A stretch of DNA of 64,000 bases, taken from NCBI RefSeq assembly GCF_020745735.1, contig NW_026869102.1:56367-120366 (forward strand). Direction: 5' to 3'. The position numbers and the translations under genes are program-made. This document shows, piece after piece, positions 1,420 through 36,060 of the stretch. Numbering within the stretch: position 1 is the first letter of the stretch; every line of letters starts with the position of its first letter. The notes beneath the pieces are model-generated. The model had not been told where the DNA came from. It made no database searches and saw only the letters and a program-made list of their open reading frames with translations. Origin of the DNA: Hemiscyllium ocellatum (Eukaryota).

Positions 1420-2770
1420 AAAACACGTCACAGCTGGAATTCAGTATGTGAATTCAGTGAAACCGATCCTATCCCATGTCCTGAATGGACAGAATGCCAG
1501 TGTCTTTGCCTATGGCCCTACGGGAGCAGGTGGGTGAGTGACTGTCCACTGTCCTGCCTCTTTCCTTAGTGACCAGCCCCCTCAGAGCCTACAGCCTTAA
1601 AACCTGTCCTTTAACATTTAGACTAAAATGTCATGTTGCATTGTCAAACACACTTGCTGCACACCAGAAAATAGACAGGCAGGGAGGTTAAGGTCATGAA
1701 GGACATCAGTGAATCTGTGTCAACAGAACACAGTGATAACATTCACAGCTGTTCCTTTGTGAAATTAATAACTGTTTGATTCTGGCCTTGAAACAAAACT
1801 ATCAATTAACTTCTCTCCCCAATTATTGTCCTTCACTGTTGTCTGTCTAGTTAAGAATGCGCAGGGTTTTTGTAAACCTTCTTGTATAAAGGAAGACAGT
1901 TTGGGACCGTTCAGCACAGTACCCCGTCAGGGTTGTAGAAGAGCTGATCTCCCCACTAGAGACCACGCACCAAGACTTGGTGATTCGAGGGGACCAAGAC
2001 AAGAACATCTCCGTCCCCGACCTGACACAGCAGCACATCACCAGCTTCGTGGAGTTTGAGCAGTTCTTTCTGCCAGCCACACAGACAGACCACAGCCTGC
2101 ACCAAGTTGAATTGTCGGTCCAGTCGCAGCCACTCTGTGCTCCTGATTAAGGTCCAGCTAAGACGGGGCAGCCCATTGCTGTCGGGTCCTGTATTCTGGT
2201 TAGCCCGTTCCCCGGGGTTTCCACCCACGGGTGAATCCATTAACAGCGCCGTTGCCAGGCTTCCTCTCAAACCTGCGCCCGTAGACCCTCGGCTCACCGC
2301 AGGGCTGGAAGTGACCGCTGTTCCTCACCCTGCCATCTCCCGCCTGCAGCCTCCCGGGTGTTGCCTGGTGGTAGTATCCACCCTCAGGGCCTGGGAGCCT
2401 CCCCAGGGGCCGGGAGGAGCTGCCTTCACTTCCCAGAGCCCGGCCCGCGGGCCGATAGTATCCACTGTCCCCTCCGCCTCCACCACCGCCGTCTTAACGC
2501 CGGACAGTAGTTTGTACCAACGCCATTGGCTGAGCCCAGGCTCCTGTGTTCATCCACCTCACGATTGACCGAGTTCTCCATGTCCCTCTTCAGCACCGTA
2601 TCTGTTACACAGCCCCAGACCTACAGGCAGGGAGACAGACAGACAGACAACACCTGGGCATTGACACCAGAGAGACAGGCCACTGAAGGCAGCTACCATC
2701 ATACTTCCCTCCATCAGTCAGAGCATCAATTCTCGGAGGTGGGACATCCTGCTGGTCGGGTATAACAGGC
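1420..2770 (+). pseudogene. Mosaic, internally deleted duplicate of the downstream KIF22/satellite locus. It comprises an exon-2 copy, the 5' part of intron 2, an exon-4 copy, and the left flank of the satellite with one monomer.
   Basis: 1427-1830 is near-identical to 12717-13234 (including the [16 protein letters not shown] exon). 1953-2160 is near-identical to 14082-14290 (LETTHQDL...[17 protein letters not shown]). 2185-2770 matches 36648-37230. Junctions occur at short microhomologies (gatct; tgt). The copy ends with a single 30-bp satellite-type unit, gggacatcctgctggtcgggtataacaggc, at 2741-2770. Confidence 0.7.
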
Positions 2771-4335: not shown

Positions 4336-6240
4336 GGTCACTGTACACTACACCCATTATGGTGTCACCATCCAACTATATCCCCTACATTCACATCCAA
4401 ATCATGTATATAAATGACAAATTAGTGGACCCAGCACCGATCCTTGTGGCGCTCCACTGGGCACAGGCCTCCAGTCTGAACAACAACTCTCCACCACCAC
4501 CCTCTGCCTTTCCCTACAGCTCAAACCCTGGCAACATCCATCTTTCCAATAGGAAGGAGATCAGAACTGCATGCAATATTCCAACAGTGGCCTAACCAAT
4601 GTCCTGTCCAGCCACAACATGACCCTCCCAACTCCTATACTTAACACTCTGCCCTACAAAGGAAAGCATACCAAACACCTTCTTCACTATCCTATCCACT
4701 TGGGACCCCACTTTCAGGGAGCTATGAACCTGCACTGTTGTTCTACAACACTCTCGGACCTTACCATTAAGCGTATAGGTCCTGCTAAGATTGGCTTTCC
4801 CCAAAATGCAGCACCTCAAGTTAAACTCCATCTGCCACTCCTCAGCCCACTGGCCCAGCTGATCAAGATCCCATTGTAATCTGAGGTAACCTACTTCACT
4901 GTCCACTACACCTCCAATTATGGTGTCACCATCCAACTATACCTCCTACGTTCACATCCAAATCATTTATATAAATGCCGAAAAGTAGTGGACCCAGCAC
5001 CGATCCTTGTGGTGCTCCACTGGGCACAGGACTCCAGTCTGAACAACAACCCTCCACCGCCACCCTCTGTCTTTCCCTACAGCTCAAACCCTGGCAACAT
5101 CCATCTTTCCAATAGGAAGGAGATCAGAACTGCATGCAATATTCCAACAGTGGCCTAACCAATGTCCTGTCCAGCCACAACATGACCCTCCCAACTCCTA
5201 TACTTAACACTCTGCCCTACAAAGGAAAGCATACCAAACACCTTCTTCACTATCCTATCCACTTGGGACCCCACTTTCAAGGAGCTATGAACCTGCACTG
5301 TTGTTCTACAACACTCTCGGACCCTACCATTAAGCGTATAGGTCCTGCTAAGATTTGCTTTCCCCAAAATGCAGCACCTCACGTTTACCCAAGTTAAACT
5401 CCATCTGCCACTCCTCAGCCCATTGGCCCAGCTGATCAAGATCCCATTGTAATCTGAGGTAACCTACTTCACTGTCCACTACACCTCCAATTATGGTGTC
5501 ACCATCCAACTATACCTCCTACGTTCACATCCAAATCATTGATATAAATGCCGAAAAGTAGTGGACCCAGCACCGATCCTTGTGGCACTCCACTGGGCAC
5601 AGGCCTCCAGTCTGAAAAACATCTCTCCACCGCCACCCTCTGTCTTTCCCTACAGCTCAAACCCTGCCAACATCCATCTTTCCAATAGGAAGGAGATCAG
5701 AACTGCATGCAATATTCCAACAGTGGCCTAACCAATGTCCTGTCCAGCCACAACATGACCCTCCCAACTCCTATACTTAACACTCTGCCCTACAAAGGAA
5801 AGCATACCAAACACCTTCTTCACTATCCTATCCACTTGGGACCCCACTTTCAAGGAGCTATGAACCTGCACTGTTGTTCTACAACACTCTCAGACCTTAC
5901 CATTAAGCGTATAGGTCCTGCTAAGATTGGCTTTCCCCAAAATGCAGCACCTCACGTTTACCCAAGTTAAACTCCATCTGCCACTCCTCAGCCCATTGGC
6001 CCAGCTGATCAAGATCCCATTGTAATCTGAGGTAACCTACTTCACTGTCCACTACACCTCCAATTATGGTGTCACCATCCAACTATACCTCCTACATTCA
6101 CATCCAAATCATTTATATAAATGCCGAAAAGTAGTGGACCCAGCACCGATCCTTGTGACACTCCACTGGGCACAGGCCTCCAGTCTGAAAAACAACTCTC
6201 CACCACCACCCTCTGTCTTCTCCCTTCAAGCCTGTTCTGG
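4320..6240 (-). mobile_element. Tandem array of about 3.3 copies of a 573-bp internal segment of an L2/CR1-like LINE reverse-transcriptase region
   Basis: Minus-strand ORFs 4592-4936 and 5155-5439 translate to DDTIIGGVVDSEVGYLRLQWDLDQLGQWAEEWQMEFN...RIVKKVFGMLSFVGQSVKYRSWEGHVVAGQDIG, which is LINE reverse-transcriptase sequence. Identical plus-strand ORFs start at 4571, 5134 and 5707, giving a period of 563-573 bp. Confidence 0.7.
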
Positions 6241-7030
6241 ATCCAAATGGCTAGTTCTCCCTGTATTCCATGAGATCTAACCTTGCTAACCAGTCTCCCA
6301 TGGGGAACCTTGGGAAACACCTTACTGAAGGCCATATAGATCACGTCCACTGCTCTGCCCTCCTTCGGGACCAACAGGCCTGGGTTCAAATCCCACTTGT
6401 CCCAGAAACTTTTATTAGCGCCTCTGAACAAGCGAATTACCAAACATTGAACCAAATACTAAAATGTACAAGCAAAAGTAAGTAAGAGCATGTTAAGGTC
6501 AAAATGTTAGTGGATGAGCCCCAGCCAGAAGCCAGCTCTTAAATACAACTTACACTCGATCAACTCTGGAGCTATTCCGGCATACCTTTCAAACAAACAT
6601 CACTTCCAGGCCGACACTCTCTGGACGGAGGTGAAGGGAGGAGTATGCTGGCTTGCAACGCAGAGTGATACCAACAGCATGTCCCAATCTCTCTCCACAG
6701 GAACATTTTCCCAAGCCTCCACCACCACCCTCTGTCTTCTACCTTCGAACCAGTTCTGTATCCAAATGGCTAGTTCTCCCTGTATTCCATGAGATCTAAC
6801 CTTGCTAATCAGTCTTCTATGGGGATCCTTGTCGAACGCCTTACTGGAGTCCATATAGATCACATCTACTGCTCTGCCATCATCAGTCTTCTTTGTTGCT
6901 TCTTCAAAAAACTCAATCAAGTTTGTGAGACAGGATTTCCCACGCACAAAGCCATGCTGACTATCCCAAATCAGTCCTTGCCTTTCCAAAGACATGTACA
7001 TCCTGTCCCTCCTCATTCTCTCTAATTTTG
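6240..7030 (-). mobile_element. Two LINE reverse-transcriptase fragments ([17 protein letters not shown]...RRQRVVVE), each interrupted by a roughly 330-bp insert with a tRNA-like segment
   Basis: Minus-strand ORFs 6072-6455 and 6600-7016 contain [40 protein letters not shown]. The insert (antisense 6240-6600) includes ggttcaaatcccacttgtcccag, a tRNA T-arm-like sequence. The inverted counterpart lies at 10230-10860. Confidence 0.65.
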
Positions 7031-7141: not shown

Positions 7142-7447
7142 GTGGGTGGCATGGTGGTTAGCACTGCTGCCTCACAGCGCCAGAGACCCGGGTTCAATTC
7201 CCGACTCAGGCGACTGACTGTGTGGAGTTTGCACGTTCTCCCCGTGTCTGCGTGGGTTTCCTCCGGGTGCTCCGGTTTCCTCCCACAGTCCAAAGATGTG
7301 CGGGTCAGGTGAATTGGCCATGCTAAATTGCCCGTAGTGTTAGGTAAGGGGTAAATATAGGGGTATGGGTGGGCTGCACTTCGGTGGGTCGGTGTGGACT
7401 TGTTGGGCCGAAGGGCCTGTTTCCACACTGTAAGTAATCTAACCTAA
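7142..7447 (+). mobile_element. tRNA-derived SINE (shark-type, conserved central domain and LINE-like tail)
   Basis: tRNA-like head gtgggtggcatggtggttagcactgctgcctcacagcgccagagacccgggttcaattcccg. Body ...gtgggtttcctccgggtgctccggtttcctcccacagtccaaagatgtgcgggtcaggtgaattggccatgctaaattgcccgtagtgttaggtaagggg... Tail ggccgaagggcctgtttccacactgtaagtaatctaa. Reverse-orientation copies lie at 22160-22478 and 24750-25052. Confidence 0.75.
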
Positions 7448-9862: not shown

Positions 9863-10065
9863 ATGTCTAACCTACCTCCTGCGGATGTGCAGCCCTTTAG
9901 GAAGATGGCCAGTTCCCATCACCGCCGGGTGAAGGTGGTGGTCCGGCTCCGACCCTACCAGTCCACAGAGGATGAGCAGCAGGAGGGCCCCTGTGTGCGT
10001 GGCCTAGGCACCCGCTCGCTGGAACTTGTGAACTGGAGGAGCCGGACAGAATCCATGCAGTACAA
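9863..10065 (+). CDS. KIF22: KIF22 (chromokinesin Kid) coding exon 1. ATG at 9863. GTGAGT donor at 10066.
   Basis: Translates to MSNLPPADVQPFRKMASSHHRRVKVVVRLRPYQSTEDEQQEGPCVRGLGTRSLELVNWRSRTESMQY(K/N). Human KIF22 has VRVAVRLRPFVDG...[27 protein letters not shown]. Confidence 0.8.
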
Positions 10066-10209: not shown

Positions 10210-11870
10210 CCTCACCATCCTGAGATGGCCAAAGGATACAGTGGGATAGAGATAAATAGATAGATGGATAGGGTGGAGACTTGGCAGAGAAGTGGCAGAT
10301 GGAATTTAATCCTGAAACATCTGGTCACTCTGGGCTGGGCTGTGGGGGCTTGGGAAAACGTTCCTGTGGAGAGAGATTGGGACATGCTGTTGGTATCGCT
10401 CAGCGTTGCAAGCCAGCAGACTCCTCCCTTCACCTCCATCCAGAGAGTGTTGGCCTGGAAGTGATGTTTGTTTGAAAGGTATGCCGGAATAGCTCCAGAG
10501 TTGATCAAGAGTAAGTTGTATTTAAGAGCTGGCTTCTGGCTGGGGCTCATCAGTTCCCCATCCACTAACATTTTGACCTTAACATGCTCTTACTTACATT
10601 TGCTTGTACATTTTAGTATTTGGTTCAATGTTTGGTAATTTGCTTGCTCAGAGGCGCTAATAAAGGTTTCTGGGACAAGTGGGATTTGAACCCAGGCCTG
10701 TTGGTCCCGAAGGAGGGCAGAGCAGTGGACGTGATCTATATGGACTTCAGTAAGGTGTTTCCCAAGGTTCCCCATGGGAGACTGGTTAGCAAGGTTAGAT
10801 CTCATGGAATACAGGGAGAACTAGCCATTTGGATCCAGAACAGGCTTGAAGGGAGAAGACAGAGGGTGGTGGTGGAGAGATGTTTTTCAGACTGGAGGCC
10901 TGTGCCCAGTGGAGTGCCACAAGGATCGGTGCTGGGTCCACTACTTTTCGGCATTTATATAAATGATTTGGATGTGAACATAGGAGGTATAGTTGGATGG
11001 TGACACCATAATTGGAGGTGTAGTGGACAGTGAAGTAGGTTACCTCAGATTACAATGGGATCTTGATCAGCTGTGCCAATGGGCTGAGGAGTGGCAGATG
11101 GAGTTTAACTTGGGTAAACGTGAGGTGCTGCATTTTGGGGAAAGCAAATCTTAGCAGGACCTATACGCTTAATGGTAAGGTCCAAGAGTGTTGTAGAACA
11201 AAAGTGCAGGTTCATAGCTCCTTGAAAGTGGGGTCCCAAGTGGATAGGATAGTGAAGAAGGTGTTTGGTATGCTTTCCTTTGTAGGGCAGAGTGTTAAGT
11301 ATAGGAGTTGGGAGGGTCATGTTGTGGCTGGACAGGACATTGGTTAGGCCACTGTTGGAATATTGCATGCAGTTCTGATCTCCTTCCTATTGGAAAGATG
11401 GATGTTGGCAGGGTTTGAGCTGTAGGGAAAGGCTGAATAGGTGGGGCTGTTTCCCCTGGAGCGTCGGAGACTGAAGGGGTGACTTTATGGAGGTTTATAA
11501 AATCACGATGGGTGTGGATAGGGGCAGTAGGCCAAGTCTTTTCCCTGGGGTGGGGGAGTCCAGAAGTAGAGGTCAGCGGTTTAGGGTGAGAGGGGAAAGA
11601 TATAAAAGGGATCTAAGGGGCAACTGTTTCAGCCAGAGGATGATGCATGTATGGAATGAGCTGCCAGAGGAAGTGGTGGAGGCTGGTACGATTGGAGCAT
11701 TTTAAAAGGCATCTGGATGGGTATATGAATAGGAAGGGTTTGAGGCAAATGGGCCTAGTGCTGACAAATGGGACGAGATTAGGTTAGGCTATTTGTTCGG
11801 GATGGAGCGAAGGGTCTGTTTCCGTGCTGTCCATCTCTCTGACTCTAAGTAGGGATATTATTAGTCATCA
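10210..11870 (+). mobile_element. L2/CR1-like LINE, 3' two-thirds of ORF2 with frameshifts, ending in the conserved tail
   Basis: ORF 10620-11003 contains [21 protein letters not shown]...[16 protein letters not shown]...[24 protein letters not shown] 11063-11347 has RT downstream motifs. 11487-11705 reads GDRGSRPSLFPGVGESRSRGQRFRVRGERYKRDLRGNCFSQRMMHVWNELPEEVVEAGTIGAF. Tail ggtctgtttccgtgctgtccatctctctgactctaa at about 11810-11850. Confidence 0.75.
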
Positions 11871-12685
11871 GAACCCTGAAGGGCTCTTGTTATAGTGTGA
11901 TGGTGCCTTGGGTGTGGTTGGAGGGGAAGGGTTTCTCAGTTTCATTTTTCTAATATTTGGGGAAAGAAAACACTGTCTTCCTTTTGGAATCTAACTACAT
12001 ATCTGCAGGTTGTGGGAGGGTGCACCCTCTCTTCATATTCTTAAGGAATCACTTCAGCGGCAGATACCTGCTCTTTGAGCATCCGGTGTGGAGGAAGCAA
12101 GGCTTTGTAGGTCTTCCTCATGTAGGTAAGTAGCAAGCTCACCTCTTCACGTTTATGTCTACAGCTGGGTGTCCACGTGATGACAACGGAGGTGTTTGTG
12201 AGCACCAGTCACATTTCACTTGTCTGATTTAACTTGCTGAGCTGGACACTTGTGGCAAATTACATTTGGAAACGGTGATGGCTTTTTGCAAAAGGACGTT
12301 ATAAAAGTGTTCATGATTACTGTCCTGAATTTGTACTGAACCTTTCTGAAGTTCTTCAGACCAGCTGCGCGCTGTTTTCCCCAGCCAACGTTATTTTAAT
12401 TCTATTTCTGTCGTTAGTCTTTGGTTTTGGTTCATGTTGCAATCACCCCAATGGGCAGTTGTTGCTTTTAGTTTGGGTTATTTAAAGAAATGGAGTTTGG
12501 GTTCCTCTGCACTCCTGAGTTTGCCTGTGGACAGGGAAAGGTGGAAATTTGGCATTTGTGCTAAACCCTCGATTTACAATGGTAAATCACACAGACGTTT
12601 ACTGCCTAATTCAACATTAATGTATCAGTCTGTGAAACAGCTGGACCCTTCAGTGTACTAAACCTCACCTCCTCCTGTCTCTCAG

Positions 12686-12815
12686 CTTCGATGCTTTTTA
12701 TGGTGATGACACCTCACAGCTGGAATTCAGTATGTGAATTCAGTGAAACCGATCCTATCCCATGTCCTGAATGGACAGAATGCCAGTGTCTTTGCCTATG
12801 GCCCTACGGGAGCAG
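12686..12815 (+). CDS. KIF22: KIF22 coding exon 2 (FDAFYG...[17 protein letters not shown]-loop N-terminal half). Contains an internal 1-nt frame discontinuity.
   Basis: Acceptor ctctcag at 12679-12685. Frame 1 reads [11 protein letters not shown]. The conserved continuation [32 protein letters not shown] is in frame 3. Donor GTGAGT at 12816. Human has [44 protein letters not shown]. Confidence 0.8.
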
Positions 12816-13483
12816 GTGAGTGAGTGAGTGAGTGACTGTCCACTGTCCTGCCTCTTTCCTTAGTGACCAGCCCCCTCACAGAGCCGACAGCCTTAAAACC
12901 TGTCCTTTAACATTTAGACTAAAATGTCATGTTGCATTGTCAAACACACTTGCTGCACACCAGAAAATAGACAGGCAGGGAGGTTAAGGTCATGAAGGAC
13001 ATCAGTGAATCTGTGTCAACAGGACACAGCGATAGCATTCACGGCTGTTCCTTTGGGAAATTAATAACTGTTTGATTCTGGCCTTGAAACAAAACTCTCT
13101 CAATTAACTTCTCTCCCCAATTATTGTCCTTCACTGTTACCTGTCTAGTTAAGAATGTGCAGGGTTTTTGTGTAAAGGAAGTCAGTTAGTGACCGTTCAG
13201 CACAGTACCCTGTCAGGGCTCTTGAAGAGCTGATCTCCTACTCTCCTGGGTTATTACAACCTAGTTAGTTTAGCTTATAGGTATCAGTGTTATGTTAAAC
13301 TGTTACATCAAGGGGTTAACCTAAACTGTCTGTTTGAGGTATTTTTATTCCAGACTACCAAAGGGTACGATCTCTGGGACAAATCGAGAGGCTTACAGGT
13401 TGAGTCCACGAGGGATTCCCTGGGCCATCTCCGATCTGTCCATATTCCCCTCTCCTGTCTTTATTTGTTTTTCTCATTGATAG

Positions 13484-13644
13484 GTAAGACCCACACCATG
13501 CTGGGCAGTCCCAAACAGCCCGGAGTGGTCCCTCGTTCTCTGCTGGACATATTTCGCATGGTACAGGAGCAGAGTGACCAGCTGTGTGGACCTTCCTGGA
13601 GATTTAATGTGACCATGTCCTACTTGGAGATCTACCAGGAGAAG
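13484..13644 (+). CDS. KIF22: KIF22 coding exon 3
   Basis: Acceptor tgatag. Translates to (G)[53 protein letters not shown]. Donor GTGAGT at 13645. Human has [20 protein letters not shown]...[13 protein letters not shown]. Confidence 0.9.
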
Positions 13645-13936
13645 GTGAGTCTTCTTTGTTGTCCTGGTTAGGTTGGGAAGAGGGACATTAATTCAGAGAT
13701 TCAGGTTCAAATCCTACCTCAGGCACTGGGGGATTCCACTTAAATGAGTCAGACAAATGACAAATCCAAGAAATAAAACAATAATGGTGACCACAAAACT
13801 GGTACCAATTGTCATAAAGAGCCAGCGTCCCTGGGAGCACAGTGTGCCATGCTTTCTCCTGCATCCTGCCCGTGTGGTGAACAGCTCCAGTTTATGGATG
13901 TGTGGTCCTTCTTCTATCTCTGTGGTGCTCAATTCC

Positions 13937-13992
13937 TGCAATACACACACACGCACACACACACGCTCTCAAACACACACACCTTGTGCACC
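13937..13992. repeat. Imperfect (CA)n microsatellite
   Basis: cacacacacgcacacacacacgctctcaaacacacacacc. Confidence 0.7.
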
Positions 13993-14072
13993 CCCACCCC
14001 CTCGTATCCCACAGTTCCCTGCACTCTCCCAGCAGCCTTTTGGAGGATGGTAACATTTCCAACGTCTCTCAG

Positions 14073-14282
14073 GTGTTGGATCTACTGGAGACCACGCACC
14101 AAGACTTGGCGATTCGAGAGGACCAAGACAAGAACATCTTCGTCCCCGACCTGACACAGCAGCGCATCACCAGCTTCGTGGAGTTTGAGCAGTTCTTTCT
14201 GCCAGCCACACAAAGACGGACCACAGCCAGCACCAAGTTGAATTGTCGGTCCAGTCGCAGCCACTCTGTGCTCCTGATTAAG
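14073..14282 (+). CDS. KIF22: KIF22 coding exon 4 (switch I)
   Basis: Translates to [70 protein letters not shown]. Human has [70 protein letters not shown]. Acceptor ctctcag. Donor gtccag at 14283. Confidence 0.9.
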
Positions 14283-14659
14283 GTCCAGCTATGTCGGGTC
14301 CCTTTGTTGCTCTTTCAATTATCTTTCTGGTGCTCACACCCTTGTGGTCTCTCTCTCTCTCGGCACACTTTCTTTCTCTTTCATACTGTAAATGCTGTAT
14401 CAATAAGTGCTACATTAAGGGCTTTAACCACATCGCTCAGGCCTGAGGCTGAAAGATCACACTCACTCTCTCCAGTTGTGCACAGTGTGTAACTCCACTT
14501 CCCAACCACCCTCCACCACCTTGCTGTCTTCCCTCAGTGCTCTGTGTCTCTCTCTGTCTCTCCCCGTGCCCCTGTCCCTCCCTCTGCCAGAATGAATGTT
14601 GCTTGGTTAGGACGCTCAGCCACCACTCTTGCTCTGATCGAATACTGGTTCTGTTGCAG

Positions 14660-14769
14660 GTGGTGAAATTGCAGCAAGAGGCACCATTCCGAGAGCTGAC
14701 AGGGAAACTCTACCTCATTGACCTGGCAGGATCGGAGGATAATCGCAGGACCGGGAATGAAGGTATCCG
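14660..14769 (+). CDS. KIF22: KIF22 coding exon 5 (switch II DLAGSE)
   Basis: Translates to [36 protein letters not shown](R). Human has [31 protein letters not shown]. Acceptor ttgcag. Donor GTACGT at 14770. Confidence 0.9.
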
Positions 14770-15658: not shown

Positions 15659-15779
15659 GCTAAAGGAGAGTGGGGCCATCAACAACTCCCTCTTTGTGTT
15701 GAGTAAAGTGGTGGATGCACTGAACCAGGGCTTGTGCAGGATTCCCTACAGGGACAGCAAGCTAACCCGTCTGCTGCAG
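15659..15779 (+). CDS. KIF22: KIF22 coding exon 6
   Basis: Translates to (R)[40 protein letters not shown]. This is near-identical to human [40 protein letters not shown]. Donor GTAAAC at 15780. Confidence 0.92.
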
Positions 15780-21241: not shown

Positions 21242-21395
21242 GATTCTCTGGGAGGCACGGCCCACAGTGTAATGATAACTAACATCGCTCCAGAATACAA
21301 GTACTACTTTAACACGCTCACCGCCCTCAACTTTGCTGCCAAATCCAAGCTGGTGGTCAACCGTCCTTTCACACAGGAAACCATCCAGCCTATCG
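21242..21395 (+). CDS. KIF22: KIF22 coding exon 7 (end of motor domain)
   Basis: Translates to [51 protein letters not shown]. Human has [50 protein letters not shown]. Acceptor gtggtag. Donor GTAAGT at 21396. Confidence 0.92.
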
Positions 21396-21541: not shown

Positions 21542-21659
21542 GCATTTGCCCTTCAAAGCGTTCCTGTGAAGGTTCATCTTCAAGTTTGCAACATCCAGCC
21601 AAGAGAACAAAATCAGGAGAGTCTGTGAGTCCTGATTCCTCGGAGGAGCTGGTGTTTAG
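21542..21659 (+). CDS. KIF22: KIF22 coding exon 8 (linker after the motor domain)
   Basis: Translates to (G)ICPSKRSCEGSSSSLQHPAKRTKSGESVSPDSSEELVF. The acceptor (cgttcag) and donor (GTAAGG at 21660) phases are compatible with exons 7 and 9. This is a low-complexity region with weak conservation. Confidence 0.6.
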
Positions 21660-21899: not shown

Positions 21900-22745
21900 A
21901 TGACATCATCAAGGCTAGTCTAATGGTGCCTCCCTATAGAAAGGTGGCGAGCTTTCTGAAGAGATTTACCAGGACGATGCTGGGTGTGGAAGGGTTTGAG
22001 TTTTACATAGAGGATGGGACTGTTTCATTTTCACCCCCGTGTGGGAGGGTGAGAGGTGACCTGATAGAGGTTTATAAGACAATGAGGAGGTATTGATCGA
22101 GTTAATGGTAGTTGTGTATTCCCTAAGATGGAGGATTTCAAAACTAGGGGCACCTTTTTAAGATTAGATTAGACTTACAGTGTGGAAACAGGCCCTTCGG
22201 CCCAACAAGTCCACACCGACCCGCCGAAGCGCAACCCACCCACACCCCCACATTTACCCCTTACCTAACACTACGGGCAATTTAGCTTGGCCAATTCACC
22301 TGACCCGCACATCTTTGTGACTGTGGGAGGAAACCGGAGCACCCGGAGGAAACCCACGCAGACACGGGGAGAACGTGCAAACTCCACACAGTCAGTCGCC
22401 AGAGTCGGGAATTGAACCCGGGTCTACAGGCGCTGTGAGGCAGCAGTGCTAACCACTGTGCCACCGTGCCGCCCACAAGAGATTTAAGGTGAGAGATTTA
22501 TAGATGATATGAGGGGCAACTATTTGACATAGAGGGTGGTTTGCTTGTGGAATGAACTTGAGGAAATGGTGGGTTGGGTACCGTTACAACGTGTAAAAGA
22601 CACTTGGATAAGTATGTGAATCGGAAAAGTTTGGGATATGGGCCAGGAGCAGGCAGGTGGGACTAGTTTAGTTTGGGGTTAATGTTTGACATGGACTGGC
22701 TGAACCACAGGGTCTGTTTCCCTGCTGTATGACACTGTCTCTATG
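21900..22745 (+). mobile_element. LINE 3' end interrupted by a reverse-orientation SINE insertion (22160-22478)
   Basis: 21962-22096 reads ...FTRTMLGVEGFEFYIEDGTVSFSPPCGRVRGDLIEVYKTMRRY. 22480-22745 reads ...RGNYLT*RVVCLWNELEEMVG...DTWISM... with tail ggtctgtttccctgctgtatgacactgtct. The SINE between them has its tRNA-like head in reverse complement (ccgggttcaattcccgactctggcgactgactgtgtggag). Confidence 0.65.
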
Positions 22746-23413: not shown

Positions 23414-23597
23414 CCCCTTCCTGAAGCCGGGAGAATATGACCCAGAGGCCTTTGACTCGGACGTGTTGGAACGAATTTCCAATCTGGAAAAGATGCTGCG
23501 GAAACACTGCAAGAATGGTCTTCCAGTACTGGGAACACCCAAAGAGGAACGTCTCCAACTCCTAAAAAAACTGGAGGAGAGTAGGCTTCAGATAGAG
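23414..23597 (+). CDS. KIF22: KIF22 coding exon 9
   Basis: Translates to (S)PFLKPGEYDPEAFDSDVLERISNLEKMLRKHCKNGLPVLGTPKEERLQLLKKLEESRLQIE. Human has [27 protein letters not shown]...[23 protein letters not shown]. Acceptor atccag. Donor GTAAGG at 23598. Confidence 0.8.
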
Positions 23598-23856: not shown

Positions 23857-24025
23857 AAACTGGAGCAGAGACAGAAGCAGCTGGAGCAAGTGCTCGCTTT
23901 GCAAGGAACGGCAGTGGGACAAACCCCGAGGAAGGAGACCTTGTTGAACAGGAATCATCCTGGAGCTCTGTGCAGAGGCTCAGTGGCCAAGCTGAGACAG
24001 CAGGCGATAGTGACACCGCTACAGC
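23857..24025 (+). CDS. KIF22: KIF22 coding exon 10 (coiled-coil region)
   Basis: Translates to KLEQRQKQLEQVLALQGTAVGQTPRKETLLNRNHPGALCRGSVAKLRQQAIVTPLQ. Human has RLKTKQKELEAKMLAQ...KPLKKAVVMPLQ. Acceptor aaatag. Donor GTAAGT at 24026. Confidence 0.75.
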
Positions 24026-24274: not shown

Positions 24275-24348
24275 GTCTGGATAACGGTCAGTTACTCAAA
24301 ACCGGCGACACACTGGTGCTGAAGAGGAGAGAGAAACTGGATAACAAG
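24275..24348 (+). CDS. KIF22: KIF22 coding exon 11
   Basis: Translates to (R)LDNGQLLKTGDTLVLKRREKLDNK. The phase is consistent with exons 10 and 12. Acceptor ttccag. Donor GTGTGT at 24349. Human has a basic KNKGRKRKLESLD stretch here. Confidence 0.6.
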
Positions 24349-24749: not shown

Positions 24750-25052
24750 TAGATTAGATTAGACTTACAGTGTGGAAACAGGCCCTTCGGCCCAACAAGT
24801 CCACACCGACCCGCCGAAGTGCAACCCACCCATACCCCTACATTTACCCCTTACCTAACCTAACATGGCCAATTCACCTGACCCGCACATCTTTGGACTG
24901 TGGGAGGAAACCGGAGCACCCGGAGGAAATCCACGCAGACACGGGGAGAACGTGCAAACTCCACACAGTCTGTCGCCTGAGTCGGGAACTGAACCCGGGT
25001 CTCAGGCGCTGTGAGGCAGCAGTGCTAACCACTGTGCCACCGTGCCGCCCAC
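24750..25052 (-). mobile_element. tRNA-derived SINE copy (same family as 7142-7447), reverse orientation
   Basis: The reverse complement matches the 7142-7447 SINE end to end (...cgggttcagttcccgactcaggcgacagactgtgtggagtttgcacgttctccccgtgtctgcgtggatttcctccgggtgctccggtttcctcccacagtccaaagatgtgcgggtcaggtgaattggccatg...). Confidence 0.75.
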
Positions 25053-25738: not shown

Positions 25739-25930
25739 GAATGCAGCAGTGACTTGGAGAATGAGTTTGAGCTGACCGTGGATCATGAACTGACTCAGAG
25801 ACACAAGGATTACATCCTGAACATTCTCAACACCGGAGACCTGAAGCAGCTGAAGACCCTGCAAAGGGTGGGGGACAAGACTGCCAGGCTCATCATGAGC
25901 TGGAGGGAACACAATGGACCTTTCAGTCAG
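25739..25930 (+). CDS. KIF22: KIF22 coding exon 12 (C-terminal helix-hairpin-helix-like DNA-binding region)
   Basis: Translates to ECSSDLENEFELTVDHELTQRHKDYILNILNTGDLKQLKTLQRVGDKTARLIMSWREHNGPFSQ. Human has [58 protein letters not shown]. Acceptor ttttcag. Donor GTACCT at 25931. Confidence 0.9.
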
Positions 25931-26164: not shown

Positions 26165-28360
26165 AACAGTCAAACAGGGTGGTACACTGGCTCAGGGGTT
26201 AGCTCTGCGACCTCCCAGCACGAGGGATCCAGGTTCAATTCCAGGGGAATTGGCCCCACTACATGACCCACCGTGTTCGGGGTTGGGGGGAATTGGCCCC
26301 ACTACATGACCCACCGTGTTCGGGGTTGGGGGGAATTGGTCCCACTACATGACCCACCGTGTTTGGGGTTGGGGGGAATTGGCCCCACTACATGACCCAC
26401 CGTGTTCGGGGTTGGGGGGAATTGGCCCCACTACATGACCCACCGTGTTCGGGGTTGGGGGGGATTGGCCCCACTACATGACCCACCGTGTTCGGGGTTG
26501 GGGGGGATTGGCCCCACTACATGACCCACCGTGTTTGGGGTTGGGGGAATTGGTCCCACTACATGACCCACCGTGTTTGGGGTTGGGGGGGATTGGCCCC
26601 ACTACATGACCCACCATGTTCGGGGTTGGGGGGAATTGGCCCCACTACATGACCCACCGTGTTTGGGGTTGGGGGAATTGGTCCCACTACATGACCCACC
26701 GTGTTTGGGGTTGGGGGGAATTGGCCCTGCTACATGACCCACCGTGTTTGGGGTTGGGGGAATTGGCCCCACTACATGACCCACCGTGTTCGGGGTTGGG
26801 GGGAATTGGCCCCACTACATGACCCACCGGGTTGGGGGGAATTGGCCCCGCTACATGACCCACCGTGTTCGGGGTTGGGGGGAATTGGCCCTGCTACATG
26901 ACCCACCGTGTTCGGGGTTGGGGGGGATTGGCCCCACTACATGACCCACCGTGTTCGGGGTTGGGGGGGATTGGCCCCACTACATGACCCACCGTGTTTG
27001 GGGTTGGGGGAATTGGTCCCACTACATGACCCACCGTGTTTGGGGTTGGGGGGGATTGGCCCCACTACATGACCCACCATGTTCGGGGTTGGGGGGAATT
27101 GGCCCCACTACATGACCCACCGTGTTTGGGGTTGGGGGAATTGGTCCCACTACATGACCCACCGTGTTTGGGGTTGGGGGGAATTGGCCCTGCTACATGA
27201 CCCACCGTGTTTGGGGTTGGGGGAATTGGCCCCACTACATGACCCACCGTGTTCGGGGTTGGGGGGAATTGGCCCCACTACATGACCCACCGGGTTGGGG
27301 GGAATTGGCCCCGCTACATGACCCACCGTGTTCGGGGTTGGGGGAATTGGCCCCACTACATGACCCACTGTGTTCGGGGTTGGGGGGAATTGGCCCTGCT
27401 ACATGACCCACTGTGTTTGGGGTTGGGGGGAATTGGCCCCACTACATGACCCACCGTGTTTGGGGTTGGGGGAATTGGCCCTGCTACATGACCCACCGTG
27501 TTCGGGGTTGGGGGGAATTGGCCCCGCTACATGACCCACCATGTTCGGGGTTGGGGGGAATTGGCCCTGCTACATGACCCACCGTGTTTGGGGTTGGGGG
27601 GAATTGGCCCCACTACATGACCCACCGTGTTTGGGGTTGGGGGAATTGGCCCCACTACATGACCCACCGTGTTTGGGGTTGGGGGGAATTGGCCCCACTA
27701 CATGACCCACCGTGTTTGGGGTTGGGGGAATTGGCCCCACTACATGACCCACCGTGTTCGGGGTTGGGGGGGATTGGTCCCGCTACATGACCCACCATGT
27801 TTGGGGTTGGGGGGAATTGGCCCTGCTACATGACCCACCATGTTCGGGGTTGGGGGGAATTGGTCCCACTACATGACCCACCGTGTTTGGGGTTGGGGGG
27901 AATTGGCCCCACTACATGACCCACTGTGTTTGGGATTGGGGGGAATTGGCCCCACTACATGACCCACCGTGTTCGGGGTTGGGGGGAATTGGCCCCACTA
28001 CATGACCCACCGTGTTCGGGGTTGGGGGGAATTGGCCCCGCTACATGACCCACCGTGTTTGGGGTTGGGGGGAATTGGCCCTGCTACATGACCCACCGTG
28101 TTCGGGGTTGGGGGGAATTGGTCCCACTACATGACCCACCGTGTTTGGGGTTGGGGGGAATTGGCCCTGCTACATGACCCACCGTGTTTGGGGTTGGGGG
28201 GAATTGGCCCCGCTACATGACCCACCGTGTTTGGGGTTGGGGGGAATTGGCCCCACTACATGACCCACCGTGTTCGGGGTTGGGGGGAATTGGTCCCACT
28301 ACATGACCCACCGTGTTCGGGGTTGGGGGGATTGGCCCTGCTACATGACCCACAGCATGG
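26165..28360 (+). repeat. 43-bp minisatellite of about 50 copies, seeded by a truncated tRNA-derived SINE head (26165-26250)
   Basis: Unit ccactacatgacccaccgtgttcggggttggggggaattggcc, with variants t/c and g/t, tiles 26250-28355 continuously. It is preceded by the tRNA-like head ggtggtacactggctcaggggttagctctgcgacctcccagcacgagggatccaggttcaattccagg. The unit resembles the SINE internal segment gtgaattggccatgctaaattgcccgtagtgttaggtaagggg. Confidence 0.85.
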
Positions 28361-29920: not shown

Positions 29921-29977
29921 ATCGAGGAGCTGGAGAAGATTGGGATGTCATTGAGAACTCTGTCCACTTTCATGAGG
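29921..29977 (+). CDS. KIF22: KIF22 coding exon 13
   Basis: Translates to IEELEKIGMSLRTLSTFMR. Human has [20 protein letters not shown]. Acceptor ctttcag. Donor GTAAGA at 29978. Confidence 0.75.
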
Positions 29978-30960: not shown

Positions 30961-31223
30961 TAGATCAGGCTCAAAGGGCTGAATAGCCTCCTACTATACT
31001 GTTCCTATTGAGGTGACCCACACCCGACTGAACAGACAGTGATGATCAAAACCAAACCTTTTTACTGAATAACTATTCTTATATTGCCCATTCCCTAGGC
31101 CAACGTGATGAGCTGTATGGGGAGGTGAATACCTGGTGTAGATGAAGGATCACCACATCTTTCCAAGCTGTCTTAATTGTATGTGCCGGAGTCTGGTGTG
31201 ACAGTAGAAGCCTTCAGTTCTCT

Positions 31224-34399: not shown

Positions 34400-36060
34400 C
34401 TGTCCTCACGAGGTCAGGGAGCAGGGACAGTGTCTGGGGGAAGAGCCCCCTCCCTCAGACAGGGAGCAGGGACAGTGTCCGGGGTGGGGTTAACCCCCTC
34501 CCTCAGACAGGGAGCAGGGACAGTGTCCGGGGTGGGGTTAACGCCCTCCCTCAGACAGGGAGCAGGGACAGTGTCCGGGGGAAGAGCCCCCTCCCTCAGA
34601 CAGGGAGCAGGGACAGTGTCCGGGGTGGGGTTAACCCCCTCCCTCAGACGGGGAGCAGGGACAGTGTCTGGGGGGGAAGAGCCCCCTCCCTCAGACAGGG
34701 AGCAGGGACAGTGTCCGGGGTGGGGTTAACCCCCTCCCTCAGACAGGGAGCAGGGACAGTGTCTGGGGGGGGGAAGAACCCCTTCCCTCAGACAGGGAGC
34801 AGGGACAGTGTCTGGGGGGGGGGAAGAACCCCTTCCCTCAGACAGGGAGCAGGGACAGTGTCTGGGGGGGGAAGAACCCCTTCCCTCAGACAGGGAGCAG
34901 GGACAGTGTCCGGGGTGGGGTTAACCCCCTCCCTCAGACAGGGAGCAGGGAATGTGTCCAGGGTGGGGTTAACCCCCTCCCTCAGACAGGGAGCAGGGAA
35001 TGTGTCCAGGGTGGGGTTAACCCCCTCCCTCAGACAGGGAGCAGGGACAGTGTCCGGGGTGGGGTTAACCCCCTCCCTCAGACAGGGAGCAGGGACAGTG
35101 TCCGGGGGAAGAGCCCCCTCCCTCAGACAGGGAGCAGGGACTGTGTCCGGGGTGGGGTTAACCCCCTCCTTCAGACAGGGAGCAGGGACTGTGTCCGGGG
35201 TGGGGTTAAAGCCCTCCCTCAGACAGGGAGCAGGGACAGTGTCCGGGGGAAGAGCCCCCTCCCTCAGACAGGGAGCAGGGACAGTGTCCGGGGTGGGGTT
35301 AACCCCCTCCCTCAGACAGGGAGCAGGGACTGTGTCCGGGGGAAGAGCCCCCTCCCTCAGACAGGGAGCAGGGACTGTGTCCGGGGTGGGGTTAACCCCC
35401 TCCCTCAGACAGGGAGCAGGGACGGTGTCTGGGGGAGGAGCCCCCTCCCTCAGACAGGGAGCAGGGAATGTGTCCGGGGTGGGGTTAACCCCCTCCCTCA
35501 GACAGGGAGCAGGGACAGTGTCCGGGGTGGTGTTAACCCCCTCCCTCAGACAGGGAGCAGGGAATGTGTCCGGGGTGGGGTTAACCCCCTCCCTCAGACA
35601 GGGAGCAGGGAATGTGTCCGGGGTGGGGTTAACCCCCTCCCTCAGACAGGGAGCAGGGAATGTGTCCGGGGTGGGGTTAACCCCCTCCCTCAGACAGGGA
35701 GCAGGGAATGTGTCCGGGGTGGGGTTAACCCCCTCCCTCAGACAGGGAGCAGGGAATGTGTCCAGGGTGGGGTTAACCCCCTCCCTCAGACAGGGAGCAG
35801 GGACTGTGTCCGGGGTGGGGTTAACCTCCTCCCTCAGACAGGGAGCAAGGACAGTGTCCGGGGGAGGAGCCCCCTCCCTCAGACAGGGAGCAGGGACTGT
35901 GTCCGGGGTGGGGTTAACCCCCTCCCTCAGACAGGGAGCAAGGACTGTGTCCGGGGTGGGGTTAGCCCCCTCCCTCAGACAGGGAGCAAGGACAGTGTCC
36001 GGGGGAGGAGCCCCCTCCCTCAGACAGGGAGCAGGGACAGTGTCTGGGGTGGGGTGGGGT
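34400..36060. repeat. Minisatellite of about 35 copies with 45- and 48-bp units
   Basis: Units acagggagcagggacagtgtccgggggaagagccccctccctcag (45 bp) and acagggagcaggga(c/a)(a/t)gtgtccggggtggggttaaccccctccctcag (48 bp). The 48-bp type contains the perfect palindrome GGGGTTAACCCC. The ORFs 34288-36087 (+) and 34788-36116 (-) are artefacts of the 3n period. Confidence 0.9.

Follow-up and report, generated by a model that had tools for sequence, protein, structure and literature searches.

The window analysed here is a stretch of 64,000 nt of Hemiscyllium ocellatum DNA (contig NW_026869102.1, positions 56,367 to 120,366, forward strand). The assembly, sHemOce1.pat.X.cur, is haplotype-resolved and represents the paternal haplotype (PMC11979771). 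The window carries a full-length KIF22 gene, called copy B below, which was delineated by tblastn of KIF22 orthologues, and, 8 kb upstream of it, a fragment of the same gene, called copy A. Their layout is as follows.

9863-31128, plus strand: KIF22 copy B, 14 exons, full length, ending in TGA
9863-10065, 12686-12815, 13484-13644, 14073-14282 and 14660-14769, plus strand: exons 1-5 of copy B
15659-15779, 21242-21395, 21542-21659, 23414-23597 and 23857-24025, plus strand: exons 6-10 of copy B
24275-24348, 25739-25930, 29921-29977 and 31099-31128, plus strand: exons 11-14 of copy B
1423-2167, plus strand: copy A, a decayed KIF22 fragment, with the same lesion as copy B at 1437-1458

All 13 introns of copy B are of the GT-AG type. 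Kinesin motifs are found at 12800, 13484, 14250 and 14723, and the P-loop (GPTGAGKT), switch I (SSRSH) and switch II (DLAGSE) are all present. The best 120 matches listed for the copy B protein are all KIF22, and the protein carries the Pfam domains PF00225 and PF16796. Exons 12-14 align with the HHH_3 (PF12836) region of orthologues, which provides the C-terminal helix-hairpin-helix. Once its frame is corrected, the protein is 99% identical to H. ocellatum KIF22, followed by KIF22 of Chiloscyllium (90-91%) and Stegostoma (83%). The loci of these two sharks have the same 14-exon structure and the same exon boundaries as copy B, and the Chiloscyllium CDS rebuilt from its locus reproduces the annotated protein exactly; the family relationship of Hemiscyllium and Chiloscyllium was confirmed by taxonomy. 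Exon structure, motor motifs and the C-terminal helix-hairpin-helix region are likewise common to copy B, these orthologues and an intact H. ocellatum paralogue described below. What copy B lacks of a KIF22/Kid (kinesin-10) gene is an uninterrupted frame, which ends at codon 85 if the 2 extra nt are left in place.

The surroundings of the two copies are rich in repeats. A 30-bp satellite (consensus TGGGACGTCCCGCTGGTCGGGTATAGGAGA, ~893 copies, 87% match, GC about 0.62, GC skew about +0.3) occupies 37200-64000 and runs to the window end, so that the KIF22 duplication adjoins a large satellite block. Between this satellite and the 3′ end of copy B lies a 48-bp tandem array (34415-36055, ~35 copies, 90% match). 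Intron 12 of copy B holds a 43-bp minisatellite (26244-28353, ~50 copies, with a 128-bp higher-order period), which is open in all three plus-strand frames (PTVFGVGGNWPHYMTHRV...) and could mislead ORF-based gene calling. LINE reverse-transcriptase-like ORFs are present at 10617-11700 (plus strand, intron 1 of copy B) and at 4338-6881 (minus strand). Between copies A and B, a piece of ~590 bp (10847-11433) recurs in inverse orientation as about four head-to-tail repeats with 90-98% identity, and an interspersed repeat of ~300 bp is found at 7145-7446, upstream of B, and inverted at 22161-22465 (intron 8) and 24750-25041 (intron 11), with 92-95% identity. In the zebra shark, KIF22 lies on the chromosome-level record CM060558.1, only 1.69 Mb long, and the epaulette shark region lies on a 430-kb contig; the KIF22 region may be hard to assemble in these sharks, or may be located on a very small chromosome.

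With 9863 as the annotated start, the exons of copy B add up to 1913 nt including the stop codon, which is 2 mod 3, and removal of 2 nt leaves 1911 nt, that is, 636 codons plus stop. A preliminary description of this DNA had given 1898 nt and 633 codons, figures that were not reproduced. Its observation that the coding length is not a multiple of three and can be put right at exon 2 only did hold, as a repair in exon 2 (+1 or −2 nt) opens the whole copy B ORF. No further stop or frameshift was found in the 14-exon ORF, and the exon-2 lesion is its sole ORF-breaking defect. The relevant features of exon 2 are listed here.

12686-12815, plus strand: exon 2 of copy B, 130 nt where orthologues have 128 nt, bearing the frameshift
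12704-12709, plus strand: TGA TGA in the P-loop frame, closing that frame upstream
12723-12731 and 12736-12744, plus strand: perfect 9-nt direct repeat GAATTCAGT, with a 13-nt period
12725-12730, plus strand: the lesion, ancestral GAGATC changed to GAATTCAG (G>A at 12725, A>T at 12726, AG inserted at 12729-12730), as defined by four-way nucleotide alignment
12735-12737, plus strand: early TGA stop of the FDAFYG frame, at codon 85 (of 637) and within the second of the 14 exons

Exon 2 is a clean internal exon, flanked by ...tctcag before 12686 and gtgagt after 12815. Two hallmark kinesin segments lie within it, one base out of register: the FDAFYG segment is obtained by translation from 12687 and the P-loop segment by translation from 12686, in the −1 frame relative to the former. 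Translation thus bore out the earlier claim that the two motifs occupy different frames of an uninterrupted exon. The stop in the FDAFYG frame was also present, although at 12735-12737 and not at ‘about 12730’. Because of the TGA TGA at 12704-12709 in the P-loop frame, any change of frame must be confined to 12710-12734. As assembled, copy B encodes an 84-residue product that ends ahead of the P-loop, so that no motor can be produced from it, and its transcript is a predicted substrate of nonsense-mediated decay, the stop being in the second of 14 exons. The sequence gaattcagtatgtgaattcag, found at 12723-12743, occurs again at 1437-1457 in partial copy A, in agreement with what had been reported for the pseudo-copy.

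Three RefSeq proteins forming one 90% protein cluster are annotated on a single H. ocellatum contig of 430,011 bp: XP_060679271.1, XP_060679272.1 and XP_060679273.1. The first two are isoforms X1 and X2 of one intact KIF22 gene, whereas the third is entitled ‘LOW QUALITY PROTEIN: kinesin-like protein KIF22’. After removal of 2 nt, the translation from the window is identical to XP_060679273.1 over 636/636 residues, including F82 (...QLEFYVNSV...) and a 14-residue N-terminal extension encoded at 9863-9904. The window is therefore the locus of the flagged model, and the annotation pipeline had compensated for the 2-base surplus. The entry flags only the corrected frame; it is silent on the type of lesion, on its sharing with a neighbouring fragment and on its templated look. 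The intact paralogue reads ...QLEIYVNSV... and differs from copy B at 9 of 636 residues. Its presence on the same contig argues against copy B being an essential single-copy gene.

The nature of the lesion was defined by the four-way nucleotide alignment, with Chiloscyllium plagiosum (bamboo shark) and Stegostoma tigrinum (zebra shark) as outgroups. In both outgroups exon 2 is open, 128 nt long and reads GAG ATC TAT, whereas the 130-nt exon of the window, with its stop at codon 85, reads GAATTCAGTAT; in a longer context, GAG ATC TAT GTG in both outgroups corresponds to GAATTCAGTATGTG in copies B and A. The comparison of 128 nt with 130 nt implies 2 surplus bases in exon 2. At the protein level, two alignments (15 KIF22 proteins from coral to mammal, and 11 from sharks and rays) displayed no length variation from FDAFYG to SV.P, and no indel was observed at the lesion site in any of these 26 aligned orthologues. 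The preliminary description had held that one nucleotide is missing from exon 2 and had proposed a comparison with KIF22 of related species. That comparison argues against its claim: the relatives are in a single frame with an exon 2 two bases shorter. A +1-nt repair (..LEIQYVN..) would introduce an extra residue that is absent from 26/26 orthologues and would not match the RefSeq model, and the removal of 2 nt was preferred.

The three changes of the lesion also have a common feature. Within the window, GAATTCAGT is found solely at 1437, 1450, 12723 and 12736. The downstream unit of the copy B repeat is ancestral (Chiloscyllium has GTGAATTCAGTG), while the upstream unit was made by mutation, and each of the three changes brings the site into agreement with the downstream 9-mer. 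For independent events, such complete agreement would have a probability of ~0.007. A perfect repeat created by three matching changes points to a single templated slippage event and not to a consensus error. The end product suggests one event of templated slippage or of quasi-repeat correction, with the downstream unit as the presumed template. In such an event the nascent strand would have slipped onto the near-repeat 13 nt downstream and copied from it, yielding GAATTCAGTAT; the extra 2 nt would then shift translation, and the ribosome would halt at the TGA at 12735-12737 after 84 residues, before reaching the P-loop. Streisinger slippage and Ripley-type quasi-repeat correction are known forms of templated frameshift mutagenesis at imperfect repeats. 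The likeness is that a cluster of substitutions together with an indel perfects an imperfect nearby repeat in one step; the difference is that the mechanism here is read from the end product alone. On this reading, the lesion would clearly illustrate how, in nature, a templated frameshift of several bases arises at an imperfect direct repeat.

Two overlapping frames that need a −1 join are also what is seen in programmed −1 ribosomal frameshifting, of which viral gag-pol and mammalian PEG10 are examples. A copy B protein might be obtained by −1 frameshifting or transcriptional slippage within 12710-12734, by splicing of a tiny intron, or by reinitiation at the Met of THTM, with a tail protein lacking a working motor as the product. 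The exons of B have seemingly been conserved after the A/B split, as such a bypass would lead one to expect, and three internal GT..AG pairs (14, 17 and 41 nt) would formally restore the frame. However, no slippery heptamer X XXY YYZ, nor any run of three identical bases, was found in the 12710-12734 overlap, which is just 25 nt long, and the two-frame arrangement is not conserved, orthologues and paralogue being in a single frame. On these grounds −1 ribosomal frameshifting was rejected, and copy B is not a member of this class. The tiny introns of 14 nt (GTATGTGAATTCAG), 17 nt and 41 nt were rejected as well, since they would delete 4-13 conserved motor residues and, at 14-41 nt, are far shorter than the introns that vertebrate spliceosomes can process. 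Exon 1 ends in phase 2, and none of the alternative acceptors in exon 2 (cacag/ and, twice, ttcag/) gives the P-loop frame. The possibility raised earlier, of a different acceptor placing both motifs in frame, was thus checked on the sequence and none was found to fit. Reinitiation downstream, for its part, loses the P-loop. Taken with these points, a bypass of the frameshift appears extremely unlikely. An unusual exon structure, another cause that had been put forward, is not supported, given exon boundaries identical in two other sharks and the lack of any plausible in-frame GT..AG pair or acceptor.

Copy A permits the lesion to be followed in a second, separately diverged sequence. Its segment 1423-1952 matches 12709-13238 at 92% identity and its segment 1955-2167 matches 14084-14298 at 95% identity. 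It begins in the middle of exon 2 and is without exon 3, and its exon 4 has lost 2 bp and shows several replacements. Ahead of it, 1106-1413 is 87% identical to, and collinear with, intron 1 of copy B (11595-11926), and a G13 A5 run is located at the junction. Instead of being a fragment that starts in exon 2, copy A may be a longer duplicate with several deletions, in which the counterparts of 11927-12708 and 13239-14083 are missing.

A random consensus error would be expected as a simple indel, in a homopolymer context and private to one copy. What was found is a set of two substitutions and a 2-nt insertion in a non-repetitive context, present also in A. A multi-base change of this kind, outside any homopolymer and identical in a separately diverged copy, makes a random consensus error unlikely, against the ‘consensus or assembly error’ that had been offered as one explanation. 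From the aligned sequences, the lesion looks like a genuine mutation.

The divergence between A and B, ~4% substitutions and seven indels, is not evenly distributed. The two copies are identical over 12714-12815 and nearly so up to ~13020. B is told from A by a C at 12713, which lies 10 nt before the repeat, and, beyond the exon, by a longer (GTGA)n run after 12815, an A at 12827 and a G at 12886. In a three-way comparison of A, B and Chiloscyllium, 21 substitutions were A-private, 12 B-private and 36 shared or on the outgroup branch. The region of near-identity is the following.

12709-13020, plus strand: A/B near-identity tract, containing the lesion, with 3 private versus 11 shared-derived substitutions

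In the 205 bp past this tract, by contrast, 16 substitutions are private and 9 shared (Fisher p=0.019). Identity that rises between more diverged flanks, with the shared lesion inside, is the pattern left by gene conversion, and on this statistical basis 12709-13020 is probably a conversion tract between A and B. The density of shared-derived sites is alike inside and outside the tract and does not discriminate between transfer from A to B and from B to A.

The same near-identity could have been produced during assembly. The lesion would then be real in A, and A reads assigned to the wrong copy would have overwritten ~100-300 bp of B, a kind of gene conversion in silico, the real B being an intact second KIF22. 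B-specific reads should in that case show GAGATCTAT at 12723-12731, against GAATTCAGTAT if the lesion is genuine. Several observations go in this direction: the ‘LOW QUALITY PROTEIN’ label of RefSeq denotes a suspected genome error, the identity over 12714-12815 and near-identity to ~13020 stand within an alignment otherwise 4-8% diverged, copy B is otherwise perfectly intact, and the region, on its 430-kb contig, is rich in duplications and satellite. Yet the differences between A and B at 12713, in (GTGA)n and at 12827 would require the mis-assigned tract to be very short, and the sHemOce1.pat.X.cur build is haplotype-resolved. Polishing normally alters a base only if most reads disagree with the draft, and one diverged fragment should not outvote B's own reads. 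We consider an artefact restricted to B unlikely.

Coding and non-coding positions of A and B were also found to differ in their history. In exon 4, 9 changes are A-private (plus the 2-bp deletion of A) and 0 are B-private, whereas in non-coding sequence the counts are 9 for A and 11 for B (p=0.005). This contrast indicates that the exons of B did not drift as those of A did. Had B drifted neutrally since A split off, further disabling hits would be expected, and the probability of finding none is roughly 1e-4 to 4e-3. A lesion that predates the A/B split and is followed by no further hits is thus improbable, and reading copy B as a pseudogene needs either gene conversion or a very recent origin of the lesion. 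One further site next to exon 4 distinguishes both copies from the outgroups.

14283-14288, plus strand: exon-4 donor site, AAG/GTCCAG in copies A and B versus GTACAG in both outgroups (+3 A>C)

The +3 change may represent a further lesion, a weaker one, and might reduce the strength of the splice site. Just past this donor, at 14292-14301, four changes private to copy B fall within 10 nt, where copy A is still outgroup-like; another small mutation, templated or clustered, could account for them.

The relation between B and the intact paralogue was examined on replacements and synonymous changes polarised with Stegostoma. Synonymous changes number 12 on the Hemiscyllium lineage and 16 on the Chiloscyllium lineage, and replacements 18 and 14, respectively, with no rate difference. 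As 14 of the 18 Hemiscyllium-lineage replacements are common to B and the intact copy, the two appear to have separated, or to have last been homogenised, late on this lineage. Only B carries D49G, which affects a nearly invariant position of the motor, I82F, A393P, K538R and probably P509L; only the intact copy carries R21P, L455V, N496I and perhaps H566R. These tallies of private replacements, about 5 for B and 3-4 for the intact copy, do not clearly point to relaxed constraint on B. The coding sequence of B would seem to have been under selection until recently, or to have been repeatedly overwritten by the intact paralogue, a conversion that is suggested by the protein comparison only.

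Such a small distance raises the question of whether B and the intact copy are two genes at all. They might be two haplotypes of one locus, falsely duplicated in the assembly, or B might work in most animals, with the frameshift heterozygous or polymorphic. The difference at just 9/636 residues, the freedom of copy B from any other ORF-breaking lesion and the lack of private changes in its exon 4 would all fit this possibility. Against it, the two genes share a contig in an assembly of the paternal haplotype, and a protein divergence of 1.4% is high for alleles. In addition, a third, decayed copy bears the lesion too, 8 kb ahead of B, which indicates a real local duplication and an allele that is not brand new. 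False duplication or a segregating allele is therefore an improbable account of the locus. It is very unlikely, too, that copy B is still used, be it for an 84-residue N-terminal peptide, for a motorless tail protein competing with KIF22 on chromosomes, or through an unrecognised restoration of the frame; a milder form of this idea, in which B was a working second KIF22 until a ~100-300 bp conversion tract from the dead fragment A brought the templated frameshift into it, is given the same low weight.

Taken together, copy B is probably a recently disabled, redundant duplicate, either a young unprocessed pseudogene in a conversion-active duplicated region or a duplicate presumed to be without function, whose lesion may not yet have reached fixation. 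An intact paralogue is present in the genome, and copy B retains the introns and the exon structure of its parent. KIF22 would have been segmentally duplicated on the 430-kb contig, and the intact KIF22 on the same contig would supply the function, so that copy B could have just become, or be becoming, a pseudogene. Copy A would be an older, decayed fragment of the copy B lineage. The lesion would have passed between A and B by a short and more recent gene conversion, and the remainder of B would have stayed open through conversion from the intact paralogue, or through selection on B until recently. Among the three causes first proposed, a recent inactivating mutation comes closest to this scenario; the lesion is, however, a complex gain of 2 nt and not the loss of one, the animal has a second, intact KIF22, and the defect was already flagged in RefSeq.

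Textbook unprocessed pseudogenes that exchange lesions with their neighbours by gene conversion are known from human, namely CYP21A1P/CYP21A2 and SBDSP1/SBDS. As in these pairs, introns are retained in copy B, and a small disabling lesion is common to copies within a short tract of raised identity. Unlike in these pairs, a third, intact copy covers the function here, there is no disease or phenotype involved, and conversion is suggested on statistical grounds (p about 0.02).

RefSeq already marks this locus as a low-quality KIF22 model with a corrected frame, and the finding is an ordinary one. With an intact KIF22 adjacent, its significance is limited mostly to annotation hygiene: the XP_060679273.1 model is probably better treated as a pseudogene or non-functional duplicate than as a genome error to be corrected silently. 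Beyond this, the three KIF22 copies present a mosaic of divergence that is typical of gene conversion in segmental duplications, and this mosaic calls for caution in phylogeny or selection tests that use shark KIF22 sequences.
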